64,000 nucleotides of DNA, taken from positions 16,031 through 80,030 of the forward strand of contig JABJKH010000007.1 in the NCBI GenBank assembly GCA_018660465.1. Reading direction: 5' to 3'. Made by a program: the position numbers and the translations under genes. The notes below the pieces were generated by a model. That model made no database searches and had not been told where the DNA came from. It saw only the letters and a list, made by a program, of their open reading frames with translations. Of the stretch, positions 6,692-46,012 are shown one piece after another. The DNA is from Rhodospirillaceae bacterium (lineage in GTDB: Bacteria; Pseudomonadota; Alphaproteobacteria; Rhodospirillales; JABJKH01). Position 1 is the first letter of the stretch. Every line of letters begins with the position of its first letter.

Positions 6692-6859
6692 ATGGCGAAA
6701 CCAAGTACCATTCTCATTAAGCTGGTCAGCACTGCGGACACGGGCTTTTATTACGTGACCAAGAAAAATCCTCGGACATCTACTGAAAAAATGGAATTTC
6801 GGAAGTATGATCCGGTGGCACGCAAGCATGTCATGTTCAAGGAAGCGAAGATCAAGTAA
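6692..6859 (+). CDS. rpmG: 50S ribosomal protein L33
   Basis: The 55-aa product [55 protein letters not shown] is a typical L33 sequence. The start is the internal ATG of the tracked ORF 6608..6859. Confidence 0.95.
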
Positions 6860-6902
6860 CGTTGATCATCCTGCGAGCTGCAAAACAATGTAGCTTCAAA
6901 AT

Positions 6903-6937
6903 AAAACCGCCTATGACATACGCCAGGGCGGTTTTTT
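6903..6937 (+). terminator. Rho-independent terminator, probably bidirectional (rpmG / divK convergent pair)
   Basis: The sequence aaaaccgcc...ggcggtttttt forms a hairpin with a T-run on the + strand and an A-run on the 5' side. It sits between the convergent stops at 6859 and 6960. Confidence 0.6.
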
Positions 6938-6959
6938 CTTTCCCGAAATCAGAAGAAAT

Positions 6960-7325
6960 CTAGTTCAGAAATTTGTTAATTGTCTCTAGCAAATTTGGAA
7001 CAGATATGGGCTTGGCAATATAGCCTTCGCATCCACCTTCGCGGATTTTTTCCTCGTCGCCTTTCATTGCGAACGCGGTGACTGCAATAACCGGGATTGC
7101 CTTTAACTCATCATCGGCCTTCAACATTTTTGTGACTTCCAGTCCCGAAATCTCCGGCAATTGGATGTCCATCAAGATAAGATCTGGTTCATGCTCACGC
7201 GCCAAATCTAGTGCCTCACGCCCATCGTGGGTCTGCACCGTTTCATAGCCATGCGCCTGCAATAGATCGTTAAATAGTTTCATGTTGAGTTCGTTATCCT
7301 CAACAATCAATATCTTTTGCGCCAT
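6960..7325 (-). CDS. divK: Single-domain response regulator, DivK orthologue
   Basis: The 121-aa receiver domain matches Caulobacter DivK as I recall it across long stretches: [60 protein letters not shown]. Confidence 0.85.
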
Positions 7326-33097: not shown

Positions 33098-34077
33098 CAC
33101 CCCATCCGCTCTTGGCATTGCGCCAAGATCCGCGTGACCTCAACACCCTGATCAAGGCTTGCCGTTGAGGTATCACCATTTGAGATGGCGTTGGCAAATT
33201 CCCGAACTGCAACGGTGACCGGCATTTCATTACTAATAGGGATCGCGCGACCTTCACCCTTGGGTTCAGCTACATCAAGTTGGGCGGGGTATTCCATCAG
33301 TTGCCCCGGAACCGCATCATCGTAAGCCAATACTGTATCGTCAAAGAAGACGGCAAAGCGGCGGTGGCGGTCGGTTAAGTTTCCGAAAGTGATATCGGCG
33401 ACAGCGCTTTCTGAGAAAGTCAGGCGGAGATGATGGTTTTCGCCGATGCCGCCCTCTACTTCGCGGCGTTCCAGAACACGTGCCGCGACCGATACCGGCG
33501 TTCTCTCCAGCACCCCCAAGGCAAGCGCCACTTCGTGCGAGCCCCAATCCCACAGCACGGGAGTATGTCTCCGGTATGGCCCATGGTCGCCGACACTTGA
33601 CCACACACCACGCGCCGGTCCCGAGGTTGCAATTCGGTCCTTAATTTCTCGGTACGCAGGCCGGAAAAGATGAGTATGTTCGACAAGCACCAAACCATTG
33701 TTGGCAATGGCGCATTCGCGAATTTCGTCTGCCTCATTAACATCGAGCGTCATCGGCTTTTCAACCAGAACAGCCTTGCCCGCATCAAGTGCCGCACAGG
33801 CTATCTCAGCATGGTGTTGAGGAGGCGTTGCGATGATAACGCCAGAAATTATTTTATCGGCGATCAATTCGCGCCAATCTGTTGAGATTTTACAGTCGGA
33901 ATCAACCAGCGACTTACTGTCTGAATTTCCACTGGCCAAATGAGCCAGTTGCACGCCCTCTAAACCGGCAATTGTTTTGATATAAATCTTGCCCCACGGC
34001 CCCGCACCAATCAGACCTAAGTTGATGGGGCTGCCAGCCACGGTTATTGCTCGCCGATATAGATTCCATCCGCCCAC
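33097..34077 (-). CDS. Gfo/Idh/MocA-family NAD(P)-dependent oxidoreductase
   Basis: The N-terminal Rossmann motif is INLGLIGAGPWG, followed by a family-typical EKP motif (VLVEKPM). An alternative GTG start lies at 34041. Confidence 0.8.
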   Translation of the reverse strand: MGGWNLYRRAITVAGSPINLGLIGAGPWGKIYIKTIAGLEGVQLAHLASGNSDSKSLVDSDCKISTDWRELIADKIISGVIIATPPQHHAEIACAALDAGKAVLVEKPMTLDVNEADEIRECAIANNGLVLVEHTHLFRPAYREIKDRIATSGPARGVWSSVGDHGPYRRHTPVLWDWGSHEVALALGVLERTPVSVAARVLERREVEGGIGENHHLRLTFSESAVADITFGNLTDRHRRFAVFFDDTVLAYDDAVPGQLMEYPAQLDVAEPKGEGRAIPISNEMPVTVAVREFANAISNGDTSTASLDQGVEVTRILAQCQERMG

Positions 34078-35105
34078 GTCAGGAATCGTTTTAGGCCGTC
34101 TTCAATCCCCACACTCGGTTCAAATTCGATTTGAACATTGGCTTTGCGGATATCCGGGCAACGTCGGTTGGGCTCGTCAGCGGGATAGCTATCAGGGTAT
34201 TCAATAATGTCGTAATCGACTTTTTGATCGAGAGCATTTTCGATGTGCTTCACAAGATCGACCATCGAAATTTCTGGCTTGGGGTTGCCAATATTATAGG
34301 TCTCACCCGGCACACCCTTGAGAACCGTCAGCATAAAACCCGTCATGGCATCGGAGATATAGCAGAACGTCCGAGTTTGATTTCCAGAACCATAGACGTG
34401 CAACGGTTTGCCGCCCTTAATCCGGCTCGCGAAGTTCGGTAGTACCCGATAGTCCGCTTCCATCATACCAGGGCCATAGACATTAAAAGGTCTAATAACA
34501 TTTGCCGACGTGCCGAACTTGTCATGGTAGATGTGGCAGAGCGTTTCACCGACCCGCTTTGACTCGTCATAGCATGCGCGCGGCCCTTGGCTCGCAACAT
34601 TGCCGCGATAGCTTTCGGGTGTGGGGACGTGCTTGGGGTCTGGATCGCCATAAATTTCTGAGGAACTGAAGAACACAAATCTGGCCTGATGCTTATTCGC
34701 CAGTTCCAACATGTTGCGGGTACCGTTAACCGATACCATCAAAGTCTCAATCGGATAGGCACGGTAATAATATGGGCTGGCGATACCTGCGGCATGAATG
34801 ACGTAATCAAGTGGCCGGTCCCATTCAAACGGCTGGATCACGTCGTGCTCAATAAACTCAACGTTTGGCAGGTCGGGAATTACATTCCCCGCCTTGCCCG
34901 CCGTAATCAGGTTGTCCATAGACACAAGCTTGCAAGGTTCCTTGAGGACATGTTCGTTCAGATAGGCGAACACCTCCGTAAAGTAGCGACCAAGGAAGCC
35001 ACGACCCCCGGTTAGCAAGATCGTTTTGCCGCTAAAATCTTGCGCGGCTTCCCCTAAATTAAGGGCGATTTCAGCGACGTCGGAGGGTAACGAAAACTCG
35101 GTCAT
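34044..35105 (-). CDS. Extended SDR, UDP-glucuronate decarboxylase / NDP-sugar 4,6-dehydratase-like
   Basis: Motifs are LLTGGRGFLGRYF, SSSEIYG and YDESKR (YxxxK). The length is 353 aa. Confidence 0.85.
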   Translation of the reverse strand: MTEFSLPSDVAEIALNLGEAAQDFSGKTILLTGGRGFLGRYFTEVFAYLNEHVLKEPCKLVSMDNLITAGKAGNVIPDLPNVEFIEHDVIQPFEWDRPLDYVIHAAGIASPYYYRAYPIETLMVSVNGTRNMLELANKHQARFVFFSSSEIYGDPDPKHVPTPESYRGNVASQGPRACYDESKRVGETLCHIYHDKFGTSANVIRPFNVYGPGMMEADYRVLPNFASRIKGGKPLHVYGSGNQTRTFCYISDAMTGFMLTVLKGVPGETYNIGNPKPEISMVDLVKHIENALDQKVDYDIIEYPDSYPADEPNRRCPDIRKANVQIEFEPSVGIEDGLKRFLTWADGIYIGEQ

Positions 35106-35108
35106 GAA

Positions 35109-36353
35109 CTAAAATATCTCCACTTTCGGTAAGGGAACTATAAATTGCCCCCCTGACCGACGAAAGGCCTCATGTTTTTCCATAATTGGTTTGGCGAAAT
35201 TCCACGCGAGGATCACCAGCACGTCGGGCTTTTTATCGGCGATTGCCTCGCTTCCTACAACAGGAATGTGCATCCCTGGGGTAAAGAGCCCCTGCTTTAA
35301 TGGACTATCATCAACAATAAAATCAATGAGGTCCGGGCCAATGTCGAAATGATACATCAGTGTCGTCGCTTTGGCCGGTGCGCCGAAGCCCGCGATAGAC
35401 TTCCCTTCCTCCTTCAAGCGCCGCAAAATGTCGCCTAATTCGCTCTTTATGCCATCAATTTTCCGGGCCAGTCCTCGCAAGGTCTCAGCTTTGTCCAAAC
35501 CAAGTTCTTCTTCCTGAGCAACCGCCGTTCCAACAGACGCGCCCACAGGGTGCGCACCACCCTTCAACTGCGCAACGCCGCGAAGTGATCCACCGTGGCT
35601 GCTGACCCGAAGGGCTTCGATCAGTTCCATTCCGTTGGCTTCAAAAAACCGGGTTAATGGTTTGACCGAATGATAGGCCAGATGCTCGTGGTACATCATA
35701 TCGAATAGGGTGTCTTCGTAGACATCGACCAAGTATGAAACCTCAAAAACGAACACTCCTTCTGGGCTCAATAAATCCCGCACACCTTCGGTTACGCCTG
35801 TCAGATCATCAATATGAGCGAAGACATTGTTGGCGGTGATGACAGCAGCAGCCCCCCGGTCAGATCGAATGGTGTGGGCCAAGTCCCGCGTAAAGAACCC
35901 GGTGAGCGTCTCAATTCCAGCGTCGGTCGCGCGCTTTGCAATATCTTTTGCTGGATCAATTCCTAATACCGGGTGGCCGGCCTTCTTAAAGAAACTAAGC
36001 AGGGTCCCGTCATTCGACCCAATATCGACCACAAGGCCTTCCTTGGAGGGGCTAAAGCGCGCCATAACATCATCTGCATAATTTTCGAAATGCTTTACAA
36101 AAACAGGCGATGTGCCAGAAACATAGACATAGTTTTCAAACAAGACCCGAGGGTCGACAACGTCTAAAAGCTGAACGTGGGCGCAGTCTTCACAAAAGAA
36201 AACATCAAGTGGAAAGCGCTCCTGCTCGGCCCCTTTTTGATCCGCTGGGATAAAGGCATTGGCAGGTGGCGTCGGTTCCAGAGCGAAAACCATCGAAAGG
36301 TCCTCTCCTCCGCAGAGACGACACGTTGTTCGCCGGACGCAGGACACCGTCAT
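35109..36353 (-). CDS. NDP-hexose C-methyltransferase-like class I SAM methyltransferase (TylCIII-like architecture)
   Basis: The N-terminal zinc ribbon is CRLCGG...CEDCAH. The SAM motif is VVDIGSNDGTLL. A long C-terminal domain is typical of sugar C-methyltransferases. Confidence 0.78.
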   Translation of the reverse strand: MTVSCVRRTTCRLCGGEDLSMVFALEPTPPANAFIPADQKGAEQERFPLDVFFCEDCAHVQLLDVVDPRVLFENYVYVSGTSPVFVKHFENYADDVMARFSPSKEGLVVDIGSNDGTLLSFFKKAGHPVLGIDPAKDIAKRATDAGIETLTGFFTRDLAHTIRSDRGAAAVITANNVFAHIDDLTGVTEGVRDLLSPEGVFVFEVSYLVDVYEDTLFDMMYHEHLAYHSVKPLTRFFEANGMELIEALRVSSHGGSLRGVAQLKGGAHPVGASVGTAVAQEEELGLDKAETLRGLARKIDGIKSELGDILRRLKEEGKSIAGFGAPAKATTLMYHFDIGPDLIDFIVDDSPLKQGLFTPGMHIPVVGSEAIADKKPDVLVILAWNFAKPIMEKHEAFRRSGGQFIVPLPKVEIF

Positions 36354-36358
36354 CAGAT

Positions 36359-36784
36359 TTATACTTTAACCATTTCGATCCGTTCGACGTCGGCCTCATA
36401 GACCTCCTGCTCCCGGGAATTTCGCCCCAGGGTGACAAACGTCGAATCTTGAGTAAAGACCATGGCGTGGTCAACCATCGGCGGCGTGAAGAACAACTGA
36501 CCTTTTTTGACCGTCACTTTTTCCGGTATTGCATCGCTGCCATGGGGGCGGTGGAAATAGTCGATTTCACCTTCCGTCACATAACAGTAATGCCAATCTG
36601 TTTTATGATAGTGGTTGGCGCGGACCGTCCCTTTCTTCGATGTAATAAATACGCAGCTTTCCATCGTGGTGTCGACCAACGGTTGGATTTCTCCGCGCTC
36701 GTCAGCAAAAGTATCCTTCAACGGCACGATGACTTCTTTCGGCCAACTTTGCTTTTCTTCCTCGGTAACAGGTTTGATTTTCAT
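36359..36784 (-). CDS. Cupin-fold NDP-sugar epimerase/ketoisomerase-like protein
   Basis: The product is about 141 aa from the ATG at 36784. The cupin core is RANHYHKTDWHYCYVTEGEI. The tracked ORF extends to 36877, but that extension would overlap the upstream gene. Confidence 0.62.
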   Translation of the reverse strand: MKIKPVTEEEKQSWPKEVIVPLKDTFADERGEIQPLVDTTMESCVFITSKKGTVRANHYHKTDWHYCYVTEGEIDYFHRPHGSDAIPEKVTVKKGQLFFTPPMVDHAMVFTQDSTFVTLGRNSREQEVYEADVERIEMVKV

Positions 36785-36797
36785 GATGTCTTTCTTT

Positions 36798-36845
36798 CGT
36801 AAGAATTGGCTCTCGTAAGAATTGGCTCTCGTAAAAATTGGACTT
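36798..36845. repeat. 16-bp tandem repeat (cgtaagaattggctct x2 plus a degenerate third copy) in the GT2-cupin intergenic gap
   Basis: Read directly from the sequence: cgtaagaattggctct cgtaagaattggctct cgtaaaaattggactt. Confidence 0.7.
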
Positions 36846-37539
36846 AACGGATGATACGCTTCAGAAAAATCATCCAAATAACGGCCACGGTGTGGTGCGC
36901 TCGAATTTTCTTTCCTTCCTCATAGCTACGGCCAAAGTAGCTGATTGGAACCTCGTAAAGCTGCTTTCCACGTGCCACGGCGAGCGACAAAATTTCCGCT
37001 TGCTGCGCCCATCCGTTTGATCCCAATTCCTTCGGGTCCACCAGCGAGCGCCGGAACAACAGATAGCAACTGTAAATGTCAGTAAACGTCGTGTTGTTCA
37101 ACAAATTAAACATAAAGGAAATGACGTTGTTGCCGATTTTATGCCAGAAATTAAAGACCCGCGTAAATTCCGGTGCAACGAACCTGCTTCCGAGAACGAC
37201 GTCCGCCTCAAATCGTAGGACAGGGCCGAGCAACTTTTTGTAATCAGCGGGGTCGTATTCTAAATCCGCGTCCTGAAATAAGACGTATTCCCCGCTTGCT
37301 TCTGCCAAGCCAGCCTTTACAGCAGCCCCCTTCCCTTGATTGGCGGGACGCTTGATCAAGCGGTCAAATAATTCAGGGCGGGCCTCTAAAAGCTCAACTG
37401 TCCCGTCCTTGGAGCCATCGTCGATTACGATTCGCTCAAACTCGACACCATCAATAGATTGCTCTGCCACGCGCTCCAGGATTTGGATAACGGTACGCTC
37501 TTCGTTAAAGACGGGAATAATAACGCTGACGCGAACCAT
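36844..37539 (-). CDS. Family 2 glycosyltransferase, DPM1-like polyprenyl-phosphate glycosyltransferase
   Basis: Motifs are VIIPVFNEE, DDGSKDGT, QGKGAA and QDADLEYDP. The length is 231 aa. Confidence 0.85.
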   Translation of the reverse strand: MVRVSVIIPVFNEERTVIQILERVAEQSIDGVEFERIVIDDGSKDGTVELLEARPELFDRLIKRPANQGKGAAVKAGLAEASGEYVLFQDADLEYDPADYKKLLGPVLRFEADVVLGSRFVAPEFTRVFNFWHKIGNNVISFMFNLLNNTTFTDIYSCYLLFRRSLVDPKELGSNGWAQQAEILSLAVARGKQLYEVPISYFGRSYEEGKKIRAHHTVAVIWMIFLKRIIR

Positions 37540-37607: not shown

Positions 37608-38300
37608 TTAGAGAGGTAGGACGTTCACGCCCAAAACAGTGTTATGACCATATAGAAGCCCGATATACAGCAAGACTGTCAGTAATGTTTGCCAAAGGGG
37701 AATCTCTCGGTTCTCGATACGCGTCCTCCCCTTAAGGATTGCACCTAAGGGAAAAAATGAGGTCTCGGCTTCATAGGCCCGCCAAGCATCGCCTAAGTTT
37801 TGCCTTCGGCGAAGGTCAATGTGATACGCACCAGCAAGGGCCAAGACCGTCATCGTCCCAAACAAAATAAGCTTAGCAACTTCTCCATGCGCCAGAAGAT
37901 GAGCGATTCCCCAAAACGCGATGCCCCACATCACCGGATGGCGGGTGATTTTCAGGACCCCTTTTGGCGAAGGTACGACCGCCTTATCCTCCGTATTAAT
38001 CGCACCTGGATTTTGTGTGGTGTAGCCGCCGACAATAAAAAAACATGCGAATAACATCAATGTCAGCGAGGCATGCTTAAATCCGGTCATTGGAATCCAA
38101 AGCACAACATCTGGCGCATCCTGATAGGCCCACAACATCCATGCAAAAGACATCAGTGAGAAAATAGAATAGCCAATCATGAATGGTGCACGCCCCATTG
38201 CCGAAACGAGTCGGGGTCTGATAGAGCCCGACGACATCACGAAGTGACTGCCAACAAAGAGTATGCTCGCGAGAGCAAGGTGCCAAAGTGATCCGGTCAT
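37608..38300 (-). CDS. NnrU-family membrane protein
   Basis: The 230-aa membrane protein has ITRHPVMWGIAFWGIAHLL, which is typical of NnrU. Confidence 0.72.
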   Translation of the reverse strand: MTGSLWHLALASILFVGSHFVMSSGSIRPRLVSAMGRAPFMIGYSIFSLMSFAWMLWAYQDAPDVVLWIPMTGFKHASLTLMLFACFFIVGGYTTQNPGAINTEDKAVVPSPKGVLKITRHPVMWGIAFWGIAHLLAHGEVAKLILFGTMTVLALAGAYHIDLRRRQNLGDAWRAYEAETSFFPLGAILKGRTRIENREIPLWQTLLTVLLYIGLLYGHNTVLGVNVLPL

Positions 38301-38316
38301 TGGGTTACACTAACCG

Positions 38317-39198
38317 TTATGCGGTCTCTTGCTCAACCGCCTTCACGCGGCCTTCTCGAACAGCGATGTAAATTCCACTGCTGCAAATGACCGCAATTCC
38401 AATCCAAGTCCAAGCATCCGGCATTTCACCGAATACAAAATATCCAAACGCCGTTGCCGACACGATCCCGAAGTACTGAAATGGTGCTATCGTTGATGCA
38501 GGTGCATAGACAAAGGACGCCATCAGCAACCCCTGGCCCAAGATTGCAAAAAATACAAAGTAAAGAATGTTCATGATATCCGGTGCCCTTGGGTCAACCC
38601 AGACGACAGGCACAGCGAACGACAGTAAAACTGCGCCAATCACGACCGAATGGGCAAGCGCAACAACCGGCGGCGAGTCGCCAGCAAGTTTTCGGTTCAA
38701 AAGATAAAAAATACCAATACTGAACCCTCCAACCAGTGCGATTCCATACCCAGCGTTAAACCCATCGATATCGGGCCGCAGAATAATAGATACGCCAAGG
38801 AAGCCGACGATCACTGCCGTCCAGCGCCGAAATCCCACTTTTTCCTGAAGCACGGCCGGCGATAATGCGGTCACAACAAACGGAGCCAAAAAGTAAACAG
38901 CGGTTGTATTCGCCAAGGGTATATATAGCACTGCCCAATAAAAAAGCCCAATTCCAACAACCGCGGAAACGCCCCTAAGAACCTGAATTCCGAACGGCCT
39001 CGGCCACAACATGGCGAACCCGTAGCGCCAAACGATAAACGGCACCAACACCAGATACATTAGGAAAAATTGGGCCCAGATGATTTCCAGTGGCGAATAA
39101 TAGGCCCCAAGAATTTTTGCGAATCCGTCCTTGGTGGGCAAAAACACCATAGACAAGATCATCAACAAAACACCCTGAAAGGGGCGCGAGGAGTTCAT
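38317..39198 (-). CDS. DMT-superfamily (EamA-like) transporter
   Basis: The 293-aa protein has about 10 TM helices in two EamA-like halves. Confidence 0.82.
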   Translation of the reverse strand: MNSSRPFQGVLLMILSMVFLPTKDGFAKILGAYYSPLEIIWAQFFLMYLVLVPFIVWRYGFAMLWPRPFGIQVLRGVSAVVGIGLFYWAVLYIPLANTTAVYFLAPFVVTALSPAVLQEKVGFRRWTAVIVGFLGVSIILRPDIDGFNAGYGIALVGGFSIGIFYLLNRKLAGDSPPVVALAHSVVIGAVLLSFAVPVVWVDPRAPDIMNILYFVFFAILGQGLLMASFVYAPASTIAPFQYFGIVSATAFGYFVFGEMPDAWTWIGIAVICSSGIYIAVREGRVKAVEQETA

Positions 39199-39822: not shown

Positions 39823-40096
39823 AGAGGATTTTAATATTAACCATACAGGTGAAAAATGAAAGTTTGTCTGCGTCGTCTCCTTCTCCTATCCCGTCAGGTA
39901 ATTAGAATGGGCTCACAAAGATCGCGCGCTCATCACGCGAATTTGAAGCTAGATGATTAGCAGTAAAACAAATTCTCCTCCATCATTTCCAACATGCATT
40001 TGGGGTCACTAGCGAATCTTTTAGGTGTCACGCATACGGAGCAGCCCCAAGATTTTGCAATCGTTTTTAAACCAGACAACGTCGGGAGGCGAACTC

Positions 40097-41401
40097 GTGA
40101 AGTCATTCAAACTAAATCTCATGTCAACAACGCTTGTGCCAGCCATAGTCGGAGCGGGCCTGGCAGTTGGTGGAAGCATGGCCCTTTCCGGCGCCAGCCA
40201 AGCCGCTGGCAATGGTGAACTGCTGCCGGTGGCGAAAGCCCGGACGGGTGCTGTGCAACTTGCTGCTTGTGGCCCGTGTGGCGGAAAGCGGCGTGGCTGT
40301 GGCGGATGCAATCCTTGCGGCGCAAAAAAGCGCGGTTGCGGTGCGTGTAACCCGTGTAGAGCCAAAAAACGAGGATGTGGTGCCTGCAATCCATGCGGTG
40401 CTAAGGCTCGGTGCGGTGGATGCAACCCGTGCGCGGCGAAAAAGCGTGCCTGCAACCCTTGCAACCCCTGTGCGGCAAAAAACCCCTGCGGTGGCTGCAA
40501 TCCGTGTAACCCCTGTGCAGGTGGTGGCGGTGGATCCGTCTCGACTAAATGTTTCATTCCACGTTTGGTGAAAGCGGCTGCGTGTAATCCGTACGCGGCT
40601 AAAAAGCGTGGCTGTGGCGCGTGCAACCCGTGCGGCGCAAAAAAGCGCGGCTGTAATCCGTGCAATCCCTGTGCAGCCACGAAAAAAGGCTGCGGCGCAT
40701 GTAACCCTTGCGCGGCGAAAAAGCGTGGCTGCGGTGCGTGCAATCCATGTGCGGCCAAGAAGCGCGCTTGCAATCCTTGCAACCCGTGCGCAGCGAAGAA
40801 CCCGTGTGCGGCGAAAAACCCGTGTGCGGCGAAAAATCCGTGTGGCGGAGCCAACCCTTGTAATCCCTGTGGTGGCAACCCCTGTGGCGGCAATACCCCG
40901 TTTGTTGAAATTAAGGACAGCGAAGCTACGGCAGCCTACAACTGTCTGAAAGGTGAGATGGCCGCCGTCTATGCCAAGGCCGGCGTAAAAACCGTAAAAG
41001 GCTATCAAAATTGGCCCCTGTTCAATAAGGCGCCTTATATTGCTGATACCCATGGCGGGCGTTTGGTCAATAACTACTCCAATAAAGTCGGCGCGAAAGC
41101 GTATGGCCGATACGAGAAAATTGGCAAAGCACCTGTCGGGACGGTTTTGATGAAAGACAGCTTCGTGGCCAAGCCAGACGGAAAACTGGCGATTGGTCCC
41201 GGCTTCATCATGGAGAAGATGAAGGCGAGCTTCAGCAAGGCCACAATGAACTGGAAGTATTCCATGATCATGCCGAACGGGAGCGTCTTTGGTGTTACCG
41301 GCGGCAAGAACTCTAAAGGCATGACGTTCTGTCACGAATGTCATGGTGCCGCAGAAGACGAAGACGCTCTTCGGTTCTTACCAGAGGAGTATAGAAAGTA
41401 A
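40097..41401 (+). CDS. Exported Cys-rich CNPC-repeat protein fused to a cytochrome P460-family haem domain
   Basis: GGGAGG sits 7 nt upstream of the GTG at 40097, and an alternative ATG lies at 40121. The signal peptide ends ALSGASQA. About 210 residues follow of C-G-A-C-N-P-C-x-A-K-K-R-G type repeats. The C-terminal domain shows HGGRLVNNY, GTVLMKDSF and NWKYSM. A single CHECH haem c site lies at 41330..41344. Confidence 0.8.
   Translation: MKSFKLNLMSTTLVPAIVGAGLAVGGSMALSGASQAAGNGELLPVAKARTGAVQLAACGPCGGKRRGCGGCNPCGAKKRGCGACNPCRAKKRGCGACNPCGAKARCGGCNPCAAKKRACNPCNPCAAKNPCGGCNPCNPCAGGGGGSVSTKCFIPRLVKAAACNPYAAKKRGCGACNPCGAKKRGCNPCNPCAATKKGCGACNPCAAKKRGCGACNPCAAKKRACNPCNPCAAKNPCAAKNPCAAKNPCGGANPCNPCGGNPCGGNTPFVEIKDSEATAAYNCLKGEMAAVYAKAGVKTVKGYQNWPLFNKAPYIADTHGGRLVNNYSNKVGAKAYGRYEKIGKAPVGTVLMKDSFVAKPDGKLAIGPGFIMEKMKASFSKATMNWKYSMIMPNGSVFGVTGGKNSKGMTFCHECHGAAEDEDALRFLPEEYRK
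40262..40893 (+). repeat. In-frame coding tandem-repeat array (about 39-bp units encoding CGACNPCxAKKRG, plus 15-18-bp AAKNPC / CNPCNPC variants) in two super-blocks
   Basis: Read directly from the sequence. The repeated protein units are encoded by differing synonymous codons, for example tgcaatccttgc, tgtaacccgtgt, tgcaatccatgc and tgcaacccgtgc. Confidence 0.9.
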
Positions 41402-41532: not shown

Positions 41533-41856
41533 ATGAAAAATTTTGGAGCGAGTTTCGTCATACTTGGGGCGGCACTCGTCCTCAGTTCAGGTGCCATGGC
41601 CAAAGAAATCACCATTTCTCAAAAGGGTAAAAAATTTTCCCAACGAAATATTACCATCAGTAGCGGCGACGTTCTTGATCTCGGAAACGACGACCGAGTC
41701 TCCCACAATGTTCTCATTCGAGGCCCGGGCACACGTCTTAATAGCGGCATTCAAAAACCCGGCAAGCCATACAAATATACCTTCGACAAAAACGGTCTTT
41801 TCAAGGTTCGCTGCGGCATTCATCCAAAAATGAAATTAGATGTCACCGTAAAATAG
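41533..41856 (+). CDS. Small periplasmic cupredoxin (amicyanin/pseudoazurin-like type 1 copper protein)
   Basis: The signal peptide is ILGAALVLSSGAMA. The candidate T1Cu ligand set is His in VSHNV plus C-x2-H-x2-M in RCGIHPKM, the same spacing as amicyanin CTPHPFM. Confidence 0.72.
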   Translation: MKNFGASFVILGAALVLSSGAMAKEITISQKGKKFSQRNITISSGDVLDLGNDDRVSHNVLIRGPGTRLNSGIQKPGKPYKYTFDKNGLFKVRCGIHPKMKLDVTVK

Positions 41857-41894: not shown

Positions 41895-43550
41895 ATGTCA
41901 ATTAGAATAAAATTATTGATCGGATTCTTGCTCTGCACCGCTGTGACGGCTGCTCTTGGCGGGTACGCTGTCGTGACAATTTCGTCCCTCGGCAATCTAA
42001 CGATGGAAGTCTATGACAAGCCGCTTATGGCAATAAATTATGCCCGGGCTGCTGAGACTAATTTTGCATCCTTAGATAGCCTGCTCATTCGCTTCTCCTC
42101 GGGTGATCAGGGTGAGAAGCTTACGGACGGCATTAAAGAGCAAACAGAAAATTTATCCGAGAATTTAGAAGTTGCTTCTGAGCGGGCGATGAATGAAGAA
42201 AGCGAAATCCTCATCAATGATATTCAAAACCTCGTCACCCAATGGCAAGCATCCGTAGGGGACATTATGGCGGGCAAGAAACCTTCAGCCTCCATAGATC
42301 TTTCTAAGGTTTCATCTACAATTTTAGGGAAGCTGGGGGAACTTGTTGAGATCACCGCGGCTGCAGGATTTGAATTCCGCTTAAAGGCTGAAGAAGAAGT
42401 TGCCAAACGGGGAAGGATCACACTAATCGTTGTCGCTGCGGGTATTGCATTGGGTATCTTGATCGCCCTTTATTTAGCCTTCGTTATCACAGGCCCCTTA
42501 AAACGTGCTGTAAAAACAGCCGAAGCGATCGCCGATGGAAAGCTCGATAATGAGTTCTTGAAAGTCGGCAGGGACGAGACAGGGAAATTACTACGTTCCC
42601 TCGACTCCATGCAGCAGGCTATCTCTATCCGAATTGAAAAGGAAAATGAATTACAAGAACGCGACCGACGCCGCCAAGAGGAACAACAAGAAGTTCTGCA
42701 AAAACAGATTGGCACGCTAGAACAAAAACTTGAAACCGTCATCGAAGGGTCGGTCTCATCCGTTGTCGATAACTCGACCACTTTAAAGGAATTATCAGAT
42801 CAAATGTTGAATGCGGCATCCAGATTGCAGGAACGCGCCGGCATGGCGACCCAAGCGTCTGAAGATACGTCTTCAAACGTCGCCATGGTTACTAACGGAA
42901 CTGAACGGTTAAACGTTTCGTTTGTCGATGTTTCATCGAAGGTTAGAACCTCTACCGAGATTGCCGAGAGCGCGGCCCAGCAATCGAGCGATGCGAATAA
43001 AACAATGGACCGACTCGCTGAGACTGCTGACCAAATCGGTAGCGTCGCACAGTTGATCAAAGGGATCGCCGAACAAACCAACTTGCTGGCCCTGAACGCA
43101 ACGATTGAGGCAGCCCGCGCCGGGGATGCCGGAAAAGGATTTGCCGTCGTTGCGACGGAAGTTAAGAACTTGGCGATTGAAACGGCCAAGGCCACAGAAG
43201 AAATAGAAACCCAGGTTCAGGCCATGCAGTCGGTGACCGCCTCTGCCGTCACCGAGATGCAAAATGTCACAAATACAATTAAACAAATTCGTGATATTGC
43301 CAGTGGTGTTGCGGATTCAGTTGCCGAGCAAACAGCAGAAACAGAACTGATGGTGGAGAATGCAAACAAAGCGGAAGAAGCGAGTAACAAGCTGTCATTA
43401 TCGGTTTCGGATGTTACCACCGATGTGTCCTCTTCAGAAGGAATGGCGACCCGAGTAAATCAAGTTTCTCACTCTGTACTTGAAGAAATATCATCCCTGC
43501 AGCATCGCCTTTCAGAAACTCTGAATGAGGCAAAATCGCAGGTCAACTAA
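41895..43550 (+). CDS. Methyl-accepting chemotaxis protein (4-helix-bundle-type periplasmic sensor, HAMP, signalling domain)
   Basis: The conserved hairpin tip is [31 protein letters not shown]. Two TM helices flank a periplasmic region of about 160 aa. Confidence 0.92.
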
Positions 43551-43553
43551 GAC

Positions 43554-44240
43554 TTACACGTGTAAGGGCTCTGGGCCACCATCACCTAAGAGCTTTCGCG
43601 TCAGATCCATGCTGAAAATATGTTTCATCGCAATATCCATGGTCGGGTTGCGCTTTAAAAGGCTGCGGAGTTCTTCCTTTGGCCAAACAACACACCGGCA
43701 CGGTTGGGCTGCCTGAACTGTTGCGGTCGCGTTACCACCTTGCAGAAATGATATTTCGCCGATCATTGCGCCGTCCCGGGCACGCGCGACTTCCTTGCCA
43801 TCAATTACAATTTTTACTTCGCCGTTATAAAGCAATTTCAAAGATTCAAATTCCTCCCCTTCTTTCGCGATGAAGTTATCTTCGGGGATTTCCTTCCAAC
43901 TGGCGAGCCGCATGAGTTTCATGAATTCAACAGGGGAAAATTCTTGGAAGGTGGTTTCGTAAAGTTCCTTTTCGTCTTCGTTGAAAGAAACACCGCGTTG
44001 TTCCGAATAAAGCTGAACAATCCGTCCGCCATTAATAAACATGAACAACGACACCCAGACAATCGCCAGCCAGAGAGGCCCACCGGGTAAATAATAATTG
44101 TAAAATAATCCTATAAACCCTGAGGCAACCGAAATCGCCCGAAGCATGATCATATCCTTTACGGCATAGGAAACTGCGATCAGGGCAAACGACAGATGAC
44201 CGAAGACATCAACAAGTGTAAAAGTTAGCATTGCGGACAT
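43554..44240 (-). CDS. 3-TM membrane protein with C-terminal cyclic-nucleotide-binding-fold domain
   Basis: The N-terminal ~85 aa are hydrophobic (three helices). A CAP-type barrel follows with IGEISFLQGGNATATVQA, where the cassette Arg is replaced by Asn. Confidence 0.7.
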   Translation of the reverse strand: MSAMLTFTLVDVFGHLSFALIAVSYAVKDMIMLRAISVASGFIGLFYNYYLPGGPLWLAIVWVSLFMFINGGRIVQLYSEQRGVSFNEDEKELYETTFQEFSPVEFMKLMRLASWKEIPEDNFIAKEGEEFESLKLLYNGEVKIVIDGKEVARARDGAMIGEISFLQGGNATATVQAAQPCRCVVWPKEELRSLLKRNPTMDIAMKHIFSMDLTRKLLGDGGPEPLHV

Positions 44241-44368
44241 TCTCCAGGTGTTAAATTATAGTCACCTAAGTTATGGTGATCCTTGGTATTATCTGGCTTC
44301 TAAACATACACGTAAATCATTGTAACTGTAACGGCAATTGGGATGCCTGTTGGCATTTAGAGGGACAA

Positions 44369-45289
44369 ATGGACGTCACACGAAAAGAATTTCTCGGATT
44401 AACCGCAGCCTCTGGGGCCGCACTGATATTGGGCGCTCAGGTAATGGCAGCACCCGCCCCAGTCGCGCAGCGCAAAATTCCTAAAAGCGGTGAAATGCTT
44501 CCCGTAATCGGACTTGGAACAGCTCGAACCTTCGACGTCGAGGGAACGCCCGAAGAACTCGCCCCCCGTAAGGAAGTTTTACGCCGACTTTTTGAGGGAG
44601 GCGGCAGCGTCGTCGATTCGGCCCCCTCTTATGGCGAAGCAGAAAGGATCGTCGGCGAACTTCTGTCTTCGTTAGGCGCGCGGGACAAAGCCTTCATTGC
44701 CACCAAGATCACCACCCGTGGTGACCGTGATGAAGGTATTCAGTCGATGAAGGATTCAGCCACACGGCTAAAAACCGATCACTTCGAACTCATGCAGGTT
44801 CACAACCTTAAAAATTTAAAGACCCATCTGAAGTCGATTCGTGAATTACGAGATTCTGAAAAGACCAAATACGTCGGCGTGACACATTTCAGACCTGGTG
44901 CCTATGACCGCCTGGAAAAGGTTCTAAAATCTGAACCTCTTGATTTCGTTCAGTTGAAATATTCCTTGAGCACCCGTGAGGCGGAGGACCGCCTGCTGCC
45001 GTTGGCCCGGGACAAGGGCCTGGCTGTTTTAATAAACCGGCCCTATGACCTCGGTCGGCTATTTCGAGCCGTTAAAGGAAAATCGCTCCCGCCTTGGGCC
45101 GCTGAATTTGGTGCAGAAAGCTGGGGGCAGTTCTTTCTAAAGTTTATCCTCGGACATGATGCTGTAACCTGCGTTATCCCGGGCACCCGCAAGCCAAAGC
45201 ACATGACTGATAATCTAGGTGCCGGACGTGGTCCATTGCCAAATTCAAAGCAACGCCAACAAATGATTCGTTTTTTAGAAGGGTTGTAA
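44369..45289 (+). CDS. Aldo/keto reductase with Tat-like signal peptide
   Basis: The N-terminus is MDVTRKEFLGLTAASGAALILGAQVMAAPA. The AKR motifs are GLGTARTF and VDSAPSYGEAERIVG. The ATG is at 44369 and the tracked ORF begins at 44273. Confidence 0.83.
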   Translation: MDVTRKEFLGLTAASGAALILGAQVMAAPAPVAQRKIPKSGEMLPVIGLGTARTFDVEGTPEELAPRKEVLRRLFEGGGSVVDSAPSYGEAERIVGELLSSLGARDKAFIATKITTRGDRDEGIQSMKDSATRLKTDHFELMQVHNLKNLKTHLKSIRELRDSEKTKYVGVTHFRPGAYDRLEKVLKSEPLDFVQLKYSLSTREAEDRLLPLARDKGLAVLINRPYDLGRLFRAVKGKSLPPWAAEFGAESWGQFFLKFILGHDAVTCVIPGTRKPKHMTDNLGAGRGPLPNSKQRQQMIRFLEGL

Positions 45290-45373
45290 AAAATAATTCC
45301 AATATTTCTGCCATAGGCGGTCGAACCCGTTCCTCAAAAAATGCTAGTGTCATAAACATTAAAGGAGGCGACC

Positions 45374-46012
45374 ATGTTTGAGTCTGGCATTTTTCATTGG
45401 ATCAACATCATTGGATACATCGCGGGGGTGGTCAGTATCTGGGCCATGTACCGCAAGACTATGATCCCCCTCCGGCTAGGGGCTATTTGCAGTAATATTG
45501 GACTGCTCATTTTTGGGCTGTTATCGGAAAGCTACCCAACGGTATTTCTACACGCCATCTTGCTACCGTTGAATACAGTACGTTTGTTTCAGATGATCCA
45601 ACTGATCGACGACATGAAAAAAGCGTCCGGCACGACCCGAAATGCCATGGCGCCGTTACTTCCCTTTATGACCCTTGAAAAAATGAAAGCGGGCACCGTC
45701 TTATTTGCGAAAGGCGACATTTCAGACAAAATGTATTTTATTCATTCGGGCACCGTCAGCCTGGAAGAATTCGAAGTGGAACAAAGCACGGGCGCAGTCT
45801 TTGGTGAAATTGCCGTTTTCACATCTGATAACAGCCGCACCTGCACCGCCATCTGCATGAACGACTGTGAATTCTACACGTTGGATACCGACACCATGCT
45901 GCAGCTCTATTACCAGAATCCAGACTTCGGTATGTATCTGGTCCGCCTGATGGTTGATCGCCTGATGCAAAATTGGAAAGAAGCGGATAGCCGCGCCAAT
46001 GCGCTAACTTAA
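45374..46012 (+). CDS. 3-TM membrane protein with C-terminal cyclic-nucleotide-binding domain (paralogue of 43554..44240)
   Basis: It has the same architecture. The cassette is FGEIAVFTSDNSRTCTAI, with the Arg retained. Confidence 0.7.
   Translation: MFESGIFHWINIIGYIAGVVSIWAMYRKTMIPLRLGAICSNIGLLIFGLLSESYPTVFLHAILLPLNTVRLFQMIQLIDDMKKASGTTRNAMAPLLPFMTLEKMKAGTVLFAKGDISDKMYFIHSGTVSLEEFEVEQSTGAVFGEIAVFTSDNSRTCTAICMNDCEFYTLDTDTMLQLYYQNPDFGMYLVRLMVDRLMQNWKEADSRANALT

Follow-up and report, generated by a model that had tools for sequence, protein, structure and literature searches.

Architecture of the P460-Repeat Gene and Its Product

The window analyzed here, a 64,000-nucleotide (64-kb) stretch of contig JABJKH010000007.1 from a Rhodospirillaceae bacterium (assembly GCA_018660465.1), contains a plus-strand gene for a predicted secreted protein that combines two cysteine-repeat blocks (the arms), a short joint between them, and a C-terminal cytochrome P460-family domain (Table 1). 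A preliminary description, made from the DNA letters alone, had proposed an open reading frame at 40097..41401 that encodes an exported cysteine-repeat region fused to a P460-like haem domain. The reading frame was present at these coordinates, and the Pfam match, the predicted fold, the CXXCH motif, and the position of a haem cross-linking lysine all agreed with the proposed fusion. On the combined evidence of sequence and structural model, the protein is best explained as a P460-class enzyme with c-type haem that is predicted to reside in the periplasm; its haem domain is a distant, new member of that family.

The GTG codon at 40097 was assigned as start codon because it is preceded by a Shine-Dalgarno sequence, because the N-termini of homologues follow the pattern M.SFK..LLSTT, and because the exact 434-aa product recurs on 14 independent metagenome contigs, on which the neighbouring genes are also the same. 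By inspection, the N-terminus is of the Sec type, with a basic n-region, a hydrophobic core, an SQA/A cleavage site, and no twin-arginine motif. It is conserved among homologues, and the protein is predicted to be exported. A lipoprotein reading of the conserved QLAAC sequence was rejected, since this sequence lies 20-30 hydrophilic residues past the hydrophobic core and behind the A-x-A cleavage site.

The plus-strand repeat frame was kept through to the P460 domain in all of the approximately 200 homologues examined, so that an untranslated or frameshifted repeat, which had been considered beforehand, did not apply. Two long antisense open reading frames, at 40021..40893 (-, 290 aa) and 40124..41344 (-, 406 aa), were dismissed as composition artefacts rather than genes; they arise because the repeat is G+C-rich and stop-poor (59-64% G+C in the repeat DNA versus 45-50% in its flanks).

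Table 1. Positions of the P460-repeat gene, its parts and its neighbours in the window, and occurrence of partner genes at related loci.
Feature	Position or occurrence	Strand	Evidence or remarks
Coding sequence, 434 codons plus stop	40097..41401	+	exact product called on 14 independent metagenome contigs
Shine-Dalgarno sequence GGGAGG, 6 nt before GTG start	40085..40090	+	sequence read directly
Residues 1-36, signal-peptide-like N-terminus (MKSFK..., hydrophobic core, ...ASQA/A), no twin-arginine	40097..40204	+	inspection
Residues 37-57, conserved cap preceding first Cys (LLP.AK.R....QLAA-C)	40205..40267	+	homologues; small stand-alone repeat proteins
Repeat block 1, residues 58-141, 21 Cys, units CG[GA]CNPCxAKKRG and CNPCNPCAAK	40268..40519	+	composition; AlphaFold2 (AF2) pLDDT <50
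Joint, residues 142-172, conserved folded element 'SVSTKCFIPRLVKAAACNPYAAKK', contains Cys152	40520..40612	+	pLDDT 71-96, full-length model
Repeat block 2, residues 173-265, 21 Cys, 39-/78-/117-nt tandem periodicity	40613..40891	+	DNA repeats; AF2 pLDDT mostly <50
Cytochrome P460-family domain, residues 266-434	40892..41398	+	PF16694, AF2 model, Foldseek
Cys283 ('AYNC'), start of P460 domain	40943..40945	+	invariant in the repeat-bearing family
Lys353 ('GTVLMKDSF'), invariant	41153..41155	+	hhalign: on haem cross-link Lys70 of N. europaea P460
CHECH, single haem c attachment motif (Cys412, Cys415, His416)	41330..41344	+	aligned with CAACH of N. europaea P460
Cupredoxin, 107 aa, secreted, plastocyanin/azurin family, H...C..H..M	41533..41856	+	PF00127, 24.8 bits versus cut-off 21.2
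Methyl-accepting chemotaxis protein	41895..43550	+	
NnrU, membrane protein	37608..38300	-	157 bits
EamA transporter	38317..39198	-	
Coiled-coil protein, 124 aa	39362..39736	-	
Periplasmic FGE-sulfatase-fold protein	44/80 loci		PF03781, 146.8 bits
DUF6969	44/80 loci		PF22308, 274 bits; signal peptide absent, His-rich motifs invariant
Approximately 160-aa secreted protein 'p160'	15/80 loci		Cupredoxin_1, E 0.04, far under family cut-off
Cytochrome c2-like gene	18/80 loci		
SNase-like gene	13/80 loci		
YeeE/YedE transporter	8/80 loci		
Five-gene repeat operon	L084 6001..9925; L085 6001..9623; L086 859..4318		contigs probably gammaproteobacterial; DUF302 near

The Cytochrome P460-Family Domain

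The C-terminal domain matched PF16694 (Cytochrome_P460) with 33.7 bits, against a cut-off of 27 (E 5.3e-8), over profile positions 2-122 of 125. The match spans residues 293-416 in a 426-aa form that starts at ATG 40121, equivalent to residues 301-424 in the 434-aa numbering used here, and confirmed the family resemblance noted in the preliminary description. The predicted fold agreed with this match: the domain was modelled by AF2 with a predicted local distance difference test (pLDDT) score of 91.2, and all 14 Foldseek matches in the PDB at E<=1e-3 were P460 or c'-beta cytochromes, with a probability of 1.0 and TM scores of up to 0.73. A PDB search with the single C-terminal domain sequence gave no P460 match, and a profile of 29 family members yielded cytochrome c'-beta of Nitrosomonas europaea (7s5o, E 0.0015) as its sole match.

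The single C-terminal CXXCH motif, whose position had been given correctly beforehand, was retained in 120 of the 120 best matches, and haem c is probably attached through it. In hhalign alignments with N. europaea P460, for which a reference sequence identical to PDB 2je2 was used, Lys353 fell in the column of Lys70 ('GTVTVKELV'), the residue that forms the haem cross-link, while the same column holds a Met in c'-beta 7s5o. A haem-Lys cross-link is the defining trait of P460 against c'-beta cytochromes (PMC11928373), and the invariant Lys353 therefore places the protein, at the sequence level, with P460 rather than with c'-beta. Formation of a haem-Lys353 cross-link is accordingly a prediction of the alignment.

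Compared with the characterized P460 (CytL) proteins of N. europaea and Methylococcus capsulatus (2je2/2je3, 6hiu), the window protein has the same Pfam family, beta-sheet fold, C-terminal CXXCH, cross-link lysine position, and secretion signal. Identity with these proteins is, however, only about 16-24%, and the loop that holds the catalytic Glu of N. europaea P460, a second-sphere carboxylate required for NH2OH oxidation, appears as a 9-residue gap in the alignment with a nearly invariant Glu ('MEKM') at its edge. The window protein furthermore adds approximately 230 residues with 44 Cys and a strand-helix element that is probably docked on the domain, and its hosts are marine Alphaproteobacteria instead of nitrifiers or methanotrophs. 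The best structural matches were c'-beta cytochromes (M. capsulatus 6hih, N. europaea c'-beta-Met 7s5o, and Thermus 7ead; target-normalised TM scores of 0.55-0.73), which lack the cysteine-rich arms as well as the cross-link lysine that is invariant in the window family.

Composition and Conservation of the Cysteine-Repeat Arms

In total, 47 cysteines were counted, of which 21 are in block 1, two in the joint, 21 in block 2, one in 'AYNC', and two in CHECH. The abundance of cysteine noted in the preliminary description was thus correct, although its figure of about 44 was too low. Its 13-residue unit was recovered in the DNA of block 2, which repeats in tandem every 39 nt and shows larger periods of 78 and 117 nt, and its division into two super-blocks corresponds to the two blocks of 21 cysteines. 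The protein contains 16 CNPC and 26 C-x-x-C motifs. Cysteine makes up 20% of the arms, followed by Gly and Ala (16% each), Pro (12%), Lys (11.5%), and Asn (11%); there are 37 Lys and Arg against two Asp and Glu residues, and only one Tyr and two Phe in 217 residues. In a full-length AF2 model based on a 51-sequence alignment, both repeat blocks had pLDDT values below 50 (block 2 for the most part), and the arms are, according to this model, intrinsically disordered.

Across 201 homologues, 64% of Cys-Cys spacings were i+3 and 24% were i+6, odd and even numbers of cysteines per block were equally frequent, and the number of cysteines per protein varied from 18 to 92. This variable number and free parity indicated that the arms are a capacity-type array and not a fixed disulfide scaffold. 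Repeat number evolves by tandem duplication and drifts widely, but the cysteine positions and their period of three are strongly conserved over approximately 200 sequences and across bacterial classes. In one homologue (L029 3206..4504), the arms are built from (C-G-A)n units such as CGACGAC, with 44 Cys, no Asn-Pro, and no NPC, and the period is retained; this gene is still flanked by genes for a formylglycine-generating enzyme (FGE)-like protein and for DUF6969, two partners described below. In another (L003), Lys is absent from the repeats. Since Asn-Pro and Lys can each be missing and parity is free, the conserved feature is a cysteine at every third residue; judged from these sequences, proline, charge, and fixed disulfide pairing are not conserved features of the repeat. 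The homologue richest in cysteine (L032 2765..4513, 92 Cys) carries three copies of an additional internal segment, 'SGDSGMIQLA(SASALIQLA)QC', in which the 'QLA.C' cap, usually found ahead of the first cysteine, recurs.

In the copies of Pfam and NCBIfam that were searched, the period-3 repeat matched no described family, and no metallothionein, copper-resistance, or mercury-resistance family was matched in either. NCBIfam contained no family for the whole protein, the repeat, p160, or DUF6969. Homologue P0052 carries a precomputed assignment to PF27959. Matches to zf-CXXC and cornifin, found in homologues only, were spurious. An Fe-S cluster or Tat-related reading of the cysteine triads was rejected: a fourth Cys-Pro at the spacing C-x2-C-x2-C-x3-C-P and a Fer4 match are both absent, and the signal lacks a twin arginine, so that the Fe-S option raised in the preliminary description is unlikely for a Sec-type protein without a ferredoxin-type fourth cysteine. 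A collagen-like motif was discarded for lack of a Gly period (except in L029), as was a haem-regulatory Cys-Pro motif, because the order in the arms is Pro-Cys.

A Conserved Joint Between the Arms

The sequence 'GGGGGSVSTKCFIPRLVKAAA' between the two blocks is more than a passive linker and belongs to a conserved strand-plus-helix element, modelled with a strand at residues 148-153 and helices at 155-162 and 165-170. Residues 151-160 ('KCFIPRLVKA') reached a mean pLDDT of 96, and nearly all homologues had the motif C.[VI]P[RS][LV] or one very similar to it. Only three sequences lacked Cys283, and the same three lacked the joint. From the model and this co-occurrence, the joint probably docks on the P460 domain, to which a Cys152-Cys283 disulfide may staple it. 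With the joint docked in this way, block 2 would form a loop of about 90 residues beside the haem domain.

Distribution of the Family and Other Carriers of the Repeat

Searches with the full-length protein retrieved at least 922 protein clusters, and searches with the repeat alone at least 1017. When each species was represented by a single genome, a P460 domain of this clade was found encoded in at least 458 genomes. Counts for P460-type loci given in this study refer to the best 80 loci from these at least 458 genomes, taken with 4-kb flanks; 78 of the 80 gave an open reading frame call. All 80 derive from Alphaproteobacteria (Sneathiella, Aestuariispira insulae, and metagenome-assembled genomes of Rhodospirillales, Kiloniellales, and Hyphomicrobiales). 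Nearly all complete copies among them bear the repeat, and the few repeat-free calls were contig-end truncations or a tandem paralogue. Such repeat-less paralogues of about 230 aa stand in tandem with the repeat gene in L016 and L017 (4517..5227 in both), L040 (2687..3385), and L077 (2402..3181); the one in L040 also lacks the 'Y.C' cysteine. Relatives are labelled in databases as 'hypothetical protein' or 'cytochrome P460 family protein', as in Magnetospira sp. QH-2. The earlier statement that no protein of this architecture had been characterized held for family libraries and literature; the implied rarity did not, given the size of the family.

The repeat-only search, which had been suggested beforehand, revealed carriers other than P460. 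Among the new matches, 41 (one of them from Motiliproteus coralliicola) consist of a signal peptide followed by repeat, a monohaem SoxA/TsdA-type cytochrome c domain, and a second repeat; P0165, for example, matched PF21342 with 40.8 bits against a cut-off of 27, with SoxA TIGR04484 below threshold. These SoxA/TsdA-like carriers have a conserved cysteine about 38 residues past the CXXCH. In P0196 and P0201, repeats flank a beta domain of about 75 residues without haem, and in P0177 and P0202 they precede a haem-free 'DTRCY...GCATACAKMGIPVA' domain. The repeat also occurs by itself, as small secreted proteins of 90-140 aa that are encoded in the same operons and in many of the 80 P460-type loci. 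By sequence comparison the repeat is a mobile module, present on at least four unrelated domains and in a stand-alone form, and the proposal that it is specifically wired to P460 could not be maintained.

Literature searches for P460 fusions with Cys-rich or CNPC repeats, for formylglycine links, and for DUF6969 found nothing relevant, and a 2025 review on P460 and c'-beta cytochromes (PMC11928373) mentions no such fusions. The fusion, the period-3 cysteine module, and the gene cluster in which it occurs are undescribed in the Pfam and NCBIfam copies that were searched and in the searchable literature.

Genetic Context of the Repeat Genes

At the related P460-type loci, at least one of four core partners (DUF6969, the FGE-like protein, p160, and the small repeat protein) was encoded near the repeat gene in 50 of 80 cases, and none in the other 30. 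In the operons of L084-L086, genes for a repeat-cytochrome, the FGE-like protein, DUF6969, p160, and a small repeat protein follow each other with 4-bp overlaps. When the comparison was reversed and started from DUF6969, using the best 80 of at least 570 metagenome loci, 23 loci had at least 2.5 kb on each side. The repeat gene was present in 21 of these 23, usually directly upstream on the same strand, and the FGE-like gene in seven, which identified DUF6969 as the constant partner and the FGE-like gene as a facultative one. In L083, a remnant of about 300 nt (6826..7134) between the repeat-cytochrome gene and DUF6969, encoding '...GGCRPAARHSRP', looks like a decayed FGE-like gene.

DUF6969 is a single-domain family of at least 7866 clusters. 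Sequence and profile comparisons with the PDB gave no solved relative, domain fusions were absent among its best 120 relatives, and from its sequence the protein appears to be cytoplasmic. The closest relatives of the FGE-like protein were ToxD (E 8e-38) and CalU17 (E 2e-28), with true FGE at about 3e-18, and an invariant C-G-[VI]-C stands close to its C-terminus. A TlpA/AhpC-type periplasmic redoxin is encoded directly upstream of the repeat protein in L081 (5249..8214) and L087 (4860..5920), the latter with an additional DsbD_N gene. In Motiliproteus, a multihaem c554/MtrC-like cytochrome gene lies directly downstream of the repeat gene.

A profile search of the six-frame translated window found no DUF6969, FGE-like gene, p160, or small repeat protein; the locus thus has the period-3 secreted repeat of the cluster and not its adjacent partner genes. 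The cupredoxin gene begins 131 nt past the stop codon of the P460-repeat gene, with no terminator-like site between them, and its product carries the complete set of type-1 copper ligands (H, C, H, M). The same order of cupredoxin and chemotaxis genes recurred in one of 80 related loci (L023). Since it was found only there and in the window, the cupredoxin was rejected as a conserved core partner and is regarded as a lineage-specific neighbour; it is a candidate electron partner of the P460 protein. The NnrU gene lies 1.8 kb upstream of the P460-repeat gene, and the repeat-cytochrome gene of L084 is likewise preceded by an NnrU gene, at a distance of about 2 kb. The NnrU family is linked to NO metabolism and denitrification regulons.

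A Possible Thiol-Disulfide Function of the Arms

The P460 assignment is solid. The role of the arms was apportioned among several readings: a thiol-disulfide pool, tentatively placed first though less likely than not; metal binding, nearly as likely; a substrate for modifying enzymes, unlikely; and a passive region, the least probable of these. The data were compatible with both of the first two.

In the first of these readings, the arms would be a tethered, high-capacity pool of dithiols and disulfides that works with the haem. Vicinal C-x-x-C thiols would intercept an electrophilic haem-bound intermediate, {FeNO}6 formed from NH2OH or NO, yielding an S-nitrosothiol and subsequently a disulfide plus HNO/N2O. 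Alternatively or additionally, C-x-x-C disulfides could accept low-potential electrons from the haem. The joint, by folding back on the P460 domain, would hold the block 2 loop next to the haem; general or dedicated periplasmic thiol-disulfide machinery would reset the arms, and leftover electrons would exit via the downstream cupredoxin (cytochrome c2 in many relatives). We infer every chemical step of this scheme, the redox state of the arm thiols, and the electron partner.

This thiol-disulfide pool was favoured because the module has been combined more than once with haem domains that are open-site or reactive, including those of the SoxA type, because electron carriers adjoin P460-type genes (a cupredoxin in the window and in L023, cytochrome c2-like genes in 18 of 80 loci), because thiol reductase genes accompany two other architectures, and because several characterized FGE-fold enzymes (FGE, EgtB, OvoA, and SenA) have thiols or selenols as substrates and act on their sulfur or selenium. 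In SoxAX, the haem protein forms an S-S bond with a cysteine of its carrier protein. The disordered arms, the quantised cysteine spacing, the stand-alone repeat proteins, the nearby NnrU gene, and the FGE-fold partners in 44 of 80 loci were also counted in favour of the pool. A further argument comes from the P460 {FeNO}6 intermediate, which is electrophilic and needs a nucleophile (PMC11928373).

A functional parallel is the SoxAX-SoxYZ system of thiosulfate oxidation, in which a periplasmic haem protein acts on a carrier cysteine thiol and to which the sister architecture with a SoxA/TsdA-type domain is related in domain type. SoxY, however, offers one cysteine on a folded protein, whereas the window protein has dozens on disordered arms of the same polypeptide, carries a P460 instead of a SoxA domain, and has no adjacent sox genes. 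The ResA CEPC and TlpA CVPC sequences are C-x-P-C active sites of periplasmic thiol-disulfide reductases. The arms share this four-residue motif with Pro in third position, but without a thioredoxin fold and within a disordered repeat.

Several observations weigh against the thiol-disulfide pool. Thiol-haem chemistry of this kind is shown by no experiment or structure, transfer from a one-electron haem to a two-electron disulfide is chemically awkward, and the C-x-x-C pairs may be inert disulfides in the oxidising periplasm. The module also flanks haem-free domains (P0196, P0201, P0177, and P0202), and a haem-specific role can therefore not be general. DUF6969, the most constant partner, is left unexplained by the model. 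In the window itself, neither a redoxin nor DUF6969, p160, or the FGE-like protein is encoded, and the link to TlpA and DsbD_N derives from two loci only. Finally, no conserved FNR/CRP or NnrR/Dnr box was found upstream of 79 homologues.

Alternative Functions of the Arms

Nearly as likely as the thiol-disulfide pool, though doubtful in its own right, is a periplasmic metallothionein-like sponge, in which reduced C-x-x-C arrays would bind soft metals, most likely Cu(I) but also Hg, Cd, Zn, or As(III). The arms would fold only around the metal and would buffer or store it, or would shield the proteins attached or encoded nearby or provide them with metal. Arms that are 20% Cys, poor in aromatic residues, and without a predicted fold in the absence of a ligand fit this role, as do the variable copy number, the unconstrained cysteine parity, and the stand-alone small repeat proteins. 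The classic motif by which CopZ, Atx1, and MerP bind Cu(I) or Hg(II) is likewise C-x-x-C; in P0045 and P0175, Met or His is added to the spacers. Copper proteins occur nearby, namely the downstream cupredoxin and, with a weak cupredoxin-like match (E 0.04), p160, and the FGE family is Cu(I)-dependent, with the FGE-like partner keeping its invariant C-G-[VI]-C. The cupredoxin and cytochrome c2 neighbours are, however, more simply explained as electron carriers, and neither cop, cus, mer, and czc genes nor metal regulators recurred among the neighbours. Metal binding also offers no reason for fusion to a P460 or SoxA-like haem, requires free thiols that are hard to keep in the periplasm, and finds no counterpart among the metallothionein, copper-resistance, and mercury-resistance families. 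The metallothioneins and copper-storage proteins SmtA, MymT, and Csp1 share the high cysteine content, the C-x-x-C motifs, and the lack of a ligand-free fold, but are not homologous to the window protein, which has a Sec-type signal, is fused to a haem domain, and shows a regular period of three instead of mixed C-x-C/C-C clusters. Csp1 is, moreover, a folded helical bundle, unlike the disordered arms.

An unlikely alternative is that the arms are a scaffold of enzyme substrates, in which DUF6969 before export and the FGE-like protein after export would convert cysteines to formylglycine, sulfinate, persulfide, or a cross-link, the modified arms being the functional form. The two-way genetic coupling (DUF6969 in 44 of 80 P460-type loci and the repeat gene in 21 of 23 DUF6969 loci), the 4-bp gene overlaps of the L084-L086 operons, the score of the FGE-sulfatase domain (146.8 bits), and the 18 occurrences of C-x-P in the arms all argue for such a modification. 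Canonical FGE acts on the cysteine in C-x-P-x-R. Only one of the 18 C-x-P sequences has the Arg at +4, however, and L029 keeps both partner genes with C-G-A-C repeats that contain no Pro. The FGE-like gene is facultative (seven of 23 loci, decayed in L083), its product resembles ToxD and CalU17 more closely than true FGE and has a C-x-x-C instead of a C-x4-C spacing, and DUF6969 has no signal peptide, solved relative, or known activity. In the window, moreover, both genes are absent.

Ranked directly after this scaffold, and likewise improbable, is a wider interpretation, in which repeat proteins, cytoplasmic His-rich DUF6969, and, optionally, an FGE-fold enzyme, the cupredoxin-like p160, and small repeat proteins would make up an undescribed periplasmic system whose cysteines are enzymatically converted or loaded. 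In one version, cysteines would become formylglycine aldehydes that trap hydroxylamine as oximes or sulfite as hydroxysulfonates, and the arms would be a capture array for reactive small nucleophiles serving the P460 or SoxA-like haem. We know of no precedent for such a protein-borne array.

Least probable is a passive low-complexity region, a disulfide-stiffened spacer, tether, or aggregation-prone tail beside a P460 domain that alone matters, for detoxification of NH2OH or NO as in nitrifiers and methanotrophs. The unstructured repeats, their drift by tandem duplication, the repeat-less paralogues in L040, L016, L017, and L077, and the spurious cornifin and zf-CXXC matches, which are typical of generic low complexity, speak for this reading. 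Against it, cysteine positions and period are conserved in approximately 200 sequences across bacterial classes, the module has been reused on four or more unrelated domains and is also secreted by itself, it has dedicated gene partners, its parity is unconstrained, unlike that of a pure disulfide scaffold, and after signal cleavage nothing N-terminal is left for a tether to hold.

P460 has been studied almost only in nitrifiers and methanotrophs, as a source of N2O and NO from hydroxylamine. The present family is a large, unstudied P460 clade in marine Alphaproteobacteria, with cultured representatives in Aestuariispira insulae, Sneathiella spp., and Magnetospira sp. QH-2 among its at least 458 species genomes. 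If the arms join in haem chemistry, this clade would represent a new way in which marine bacteria link thiol redox to the turnover of N-oxides or hydroxylamine; if they bind metal, it would provide an exported metallothionein-like protein, which to our knowledge has not been described. In either case, the tight link between the repeat module and DUF6969 gives a handle on a widespread domain of unknown function, and the complete repeat system has a fair chance of being novel.

Other Features of the Window

No match was obtained when the window was scanned for Rfam families and tRNA genes. Just upstream of NnrU, a minus-strand cluster for sugar modification (34044..37539) encodes an NAD-dependent epimerase/dehydratase, a C-methyltransferase, a cupin, and a family-2 glycosyltransferase. 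Downstream of the chemotaxis gene, the region 43554..46012 holds an aldo/keto reductase gene between genes for two membrane proteins with cyclic-nucleotide-binding domains (POPDC-like and Imp-YgjV-like).

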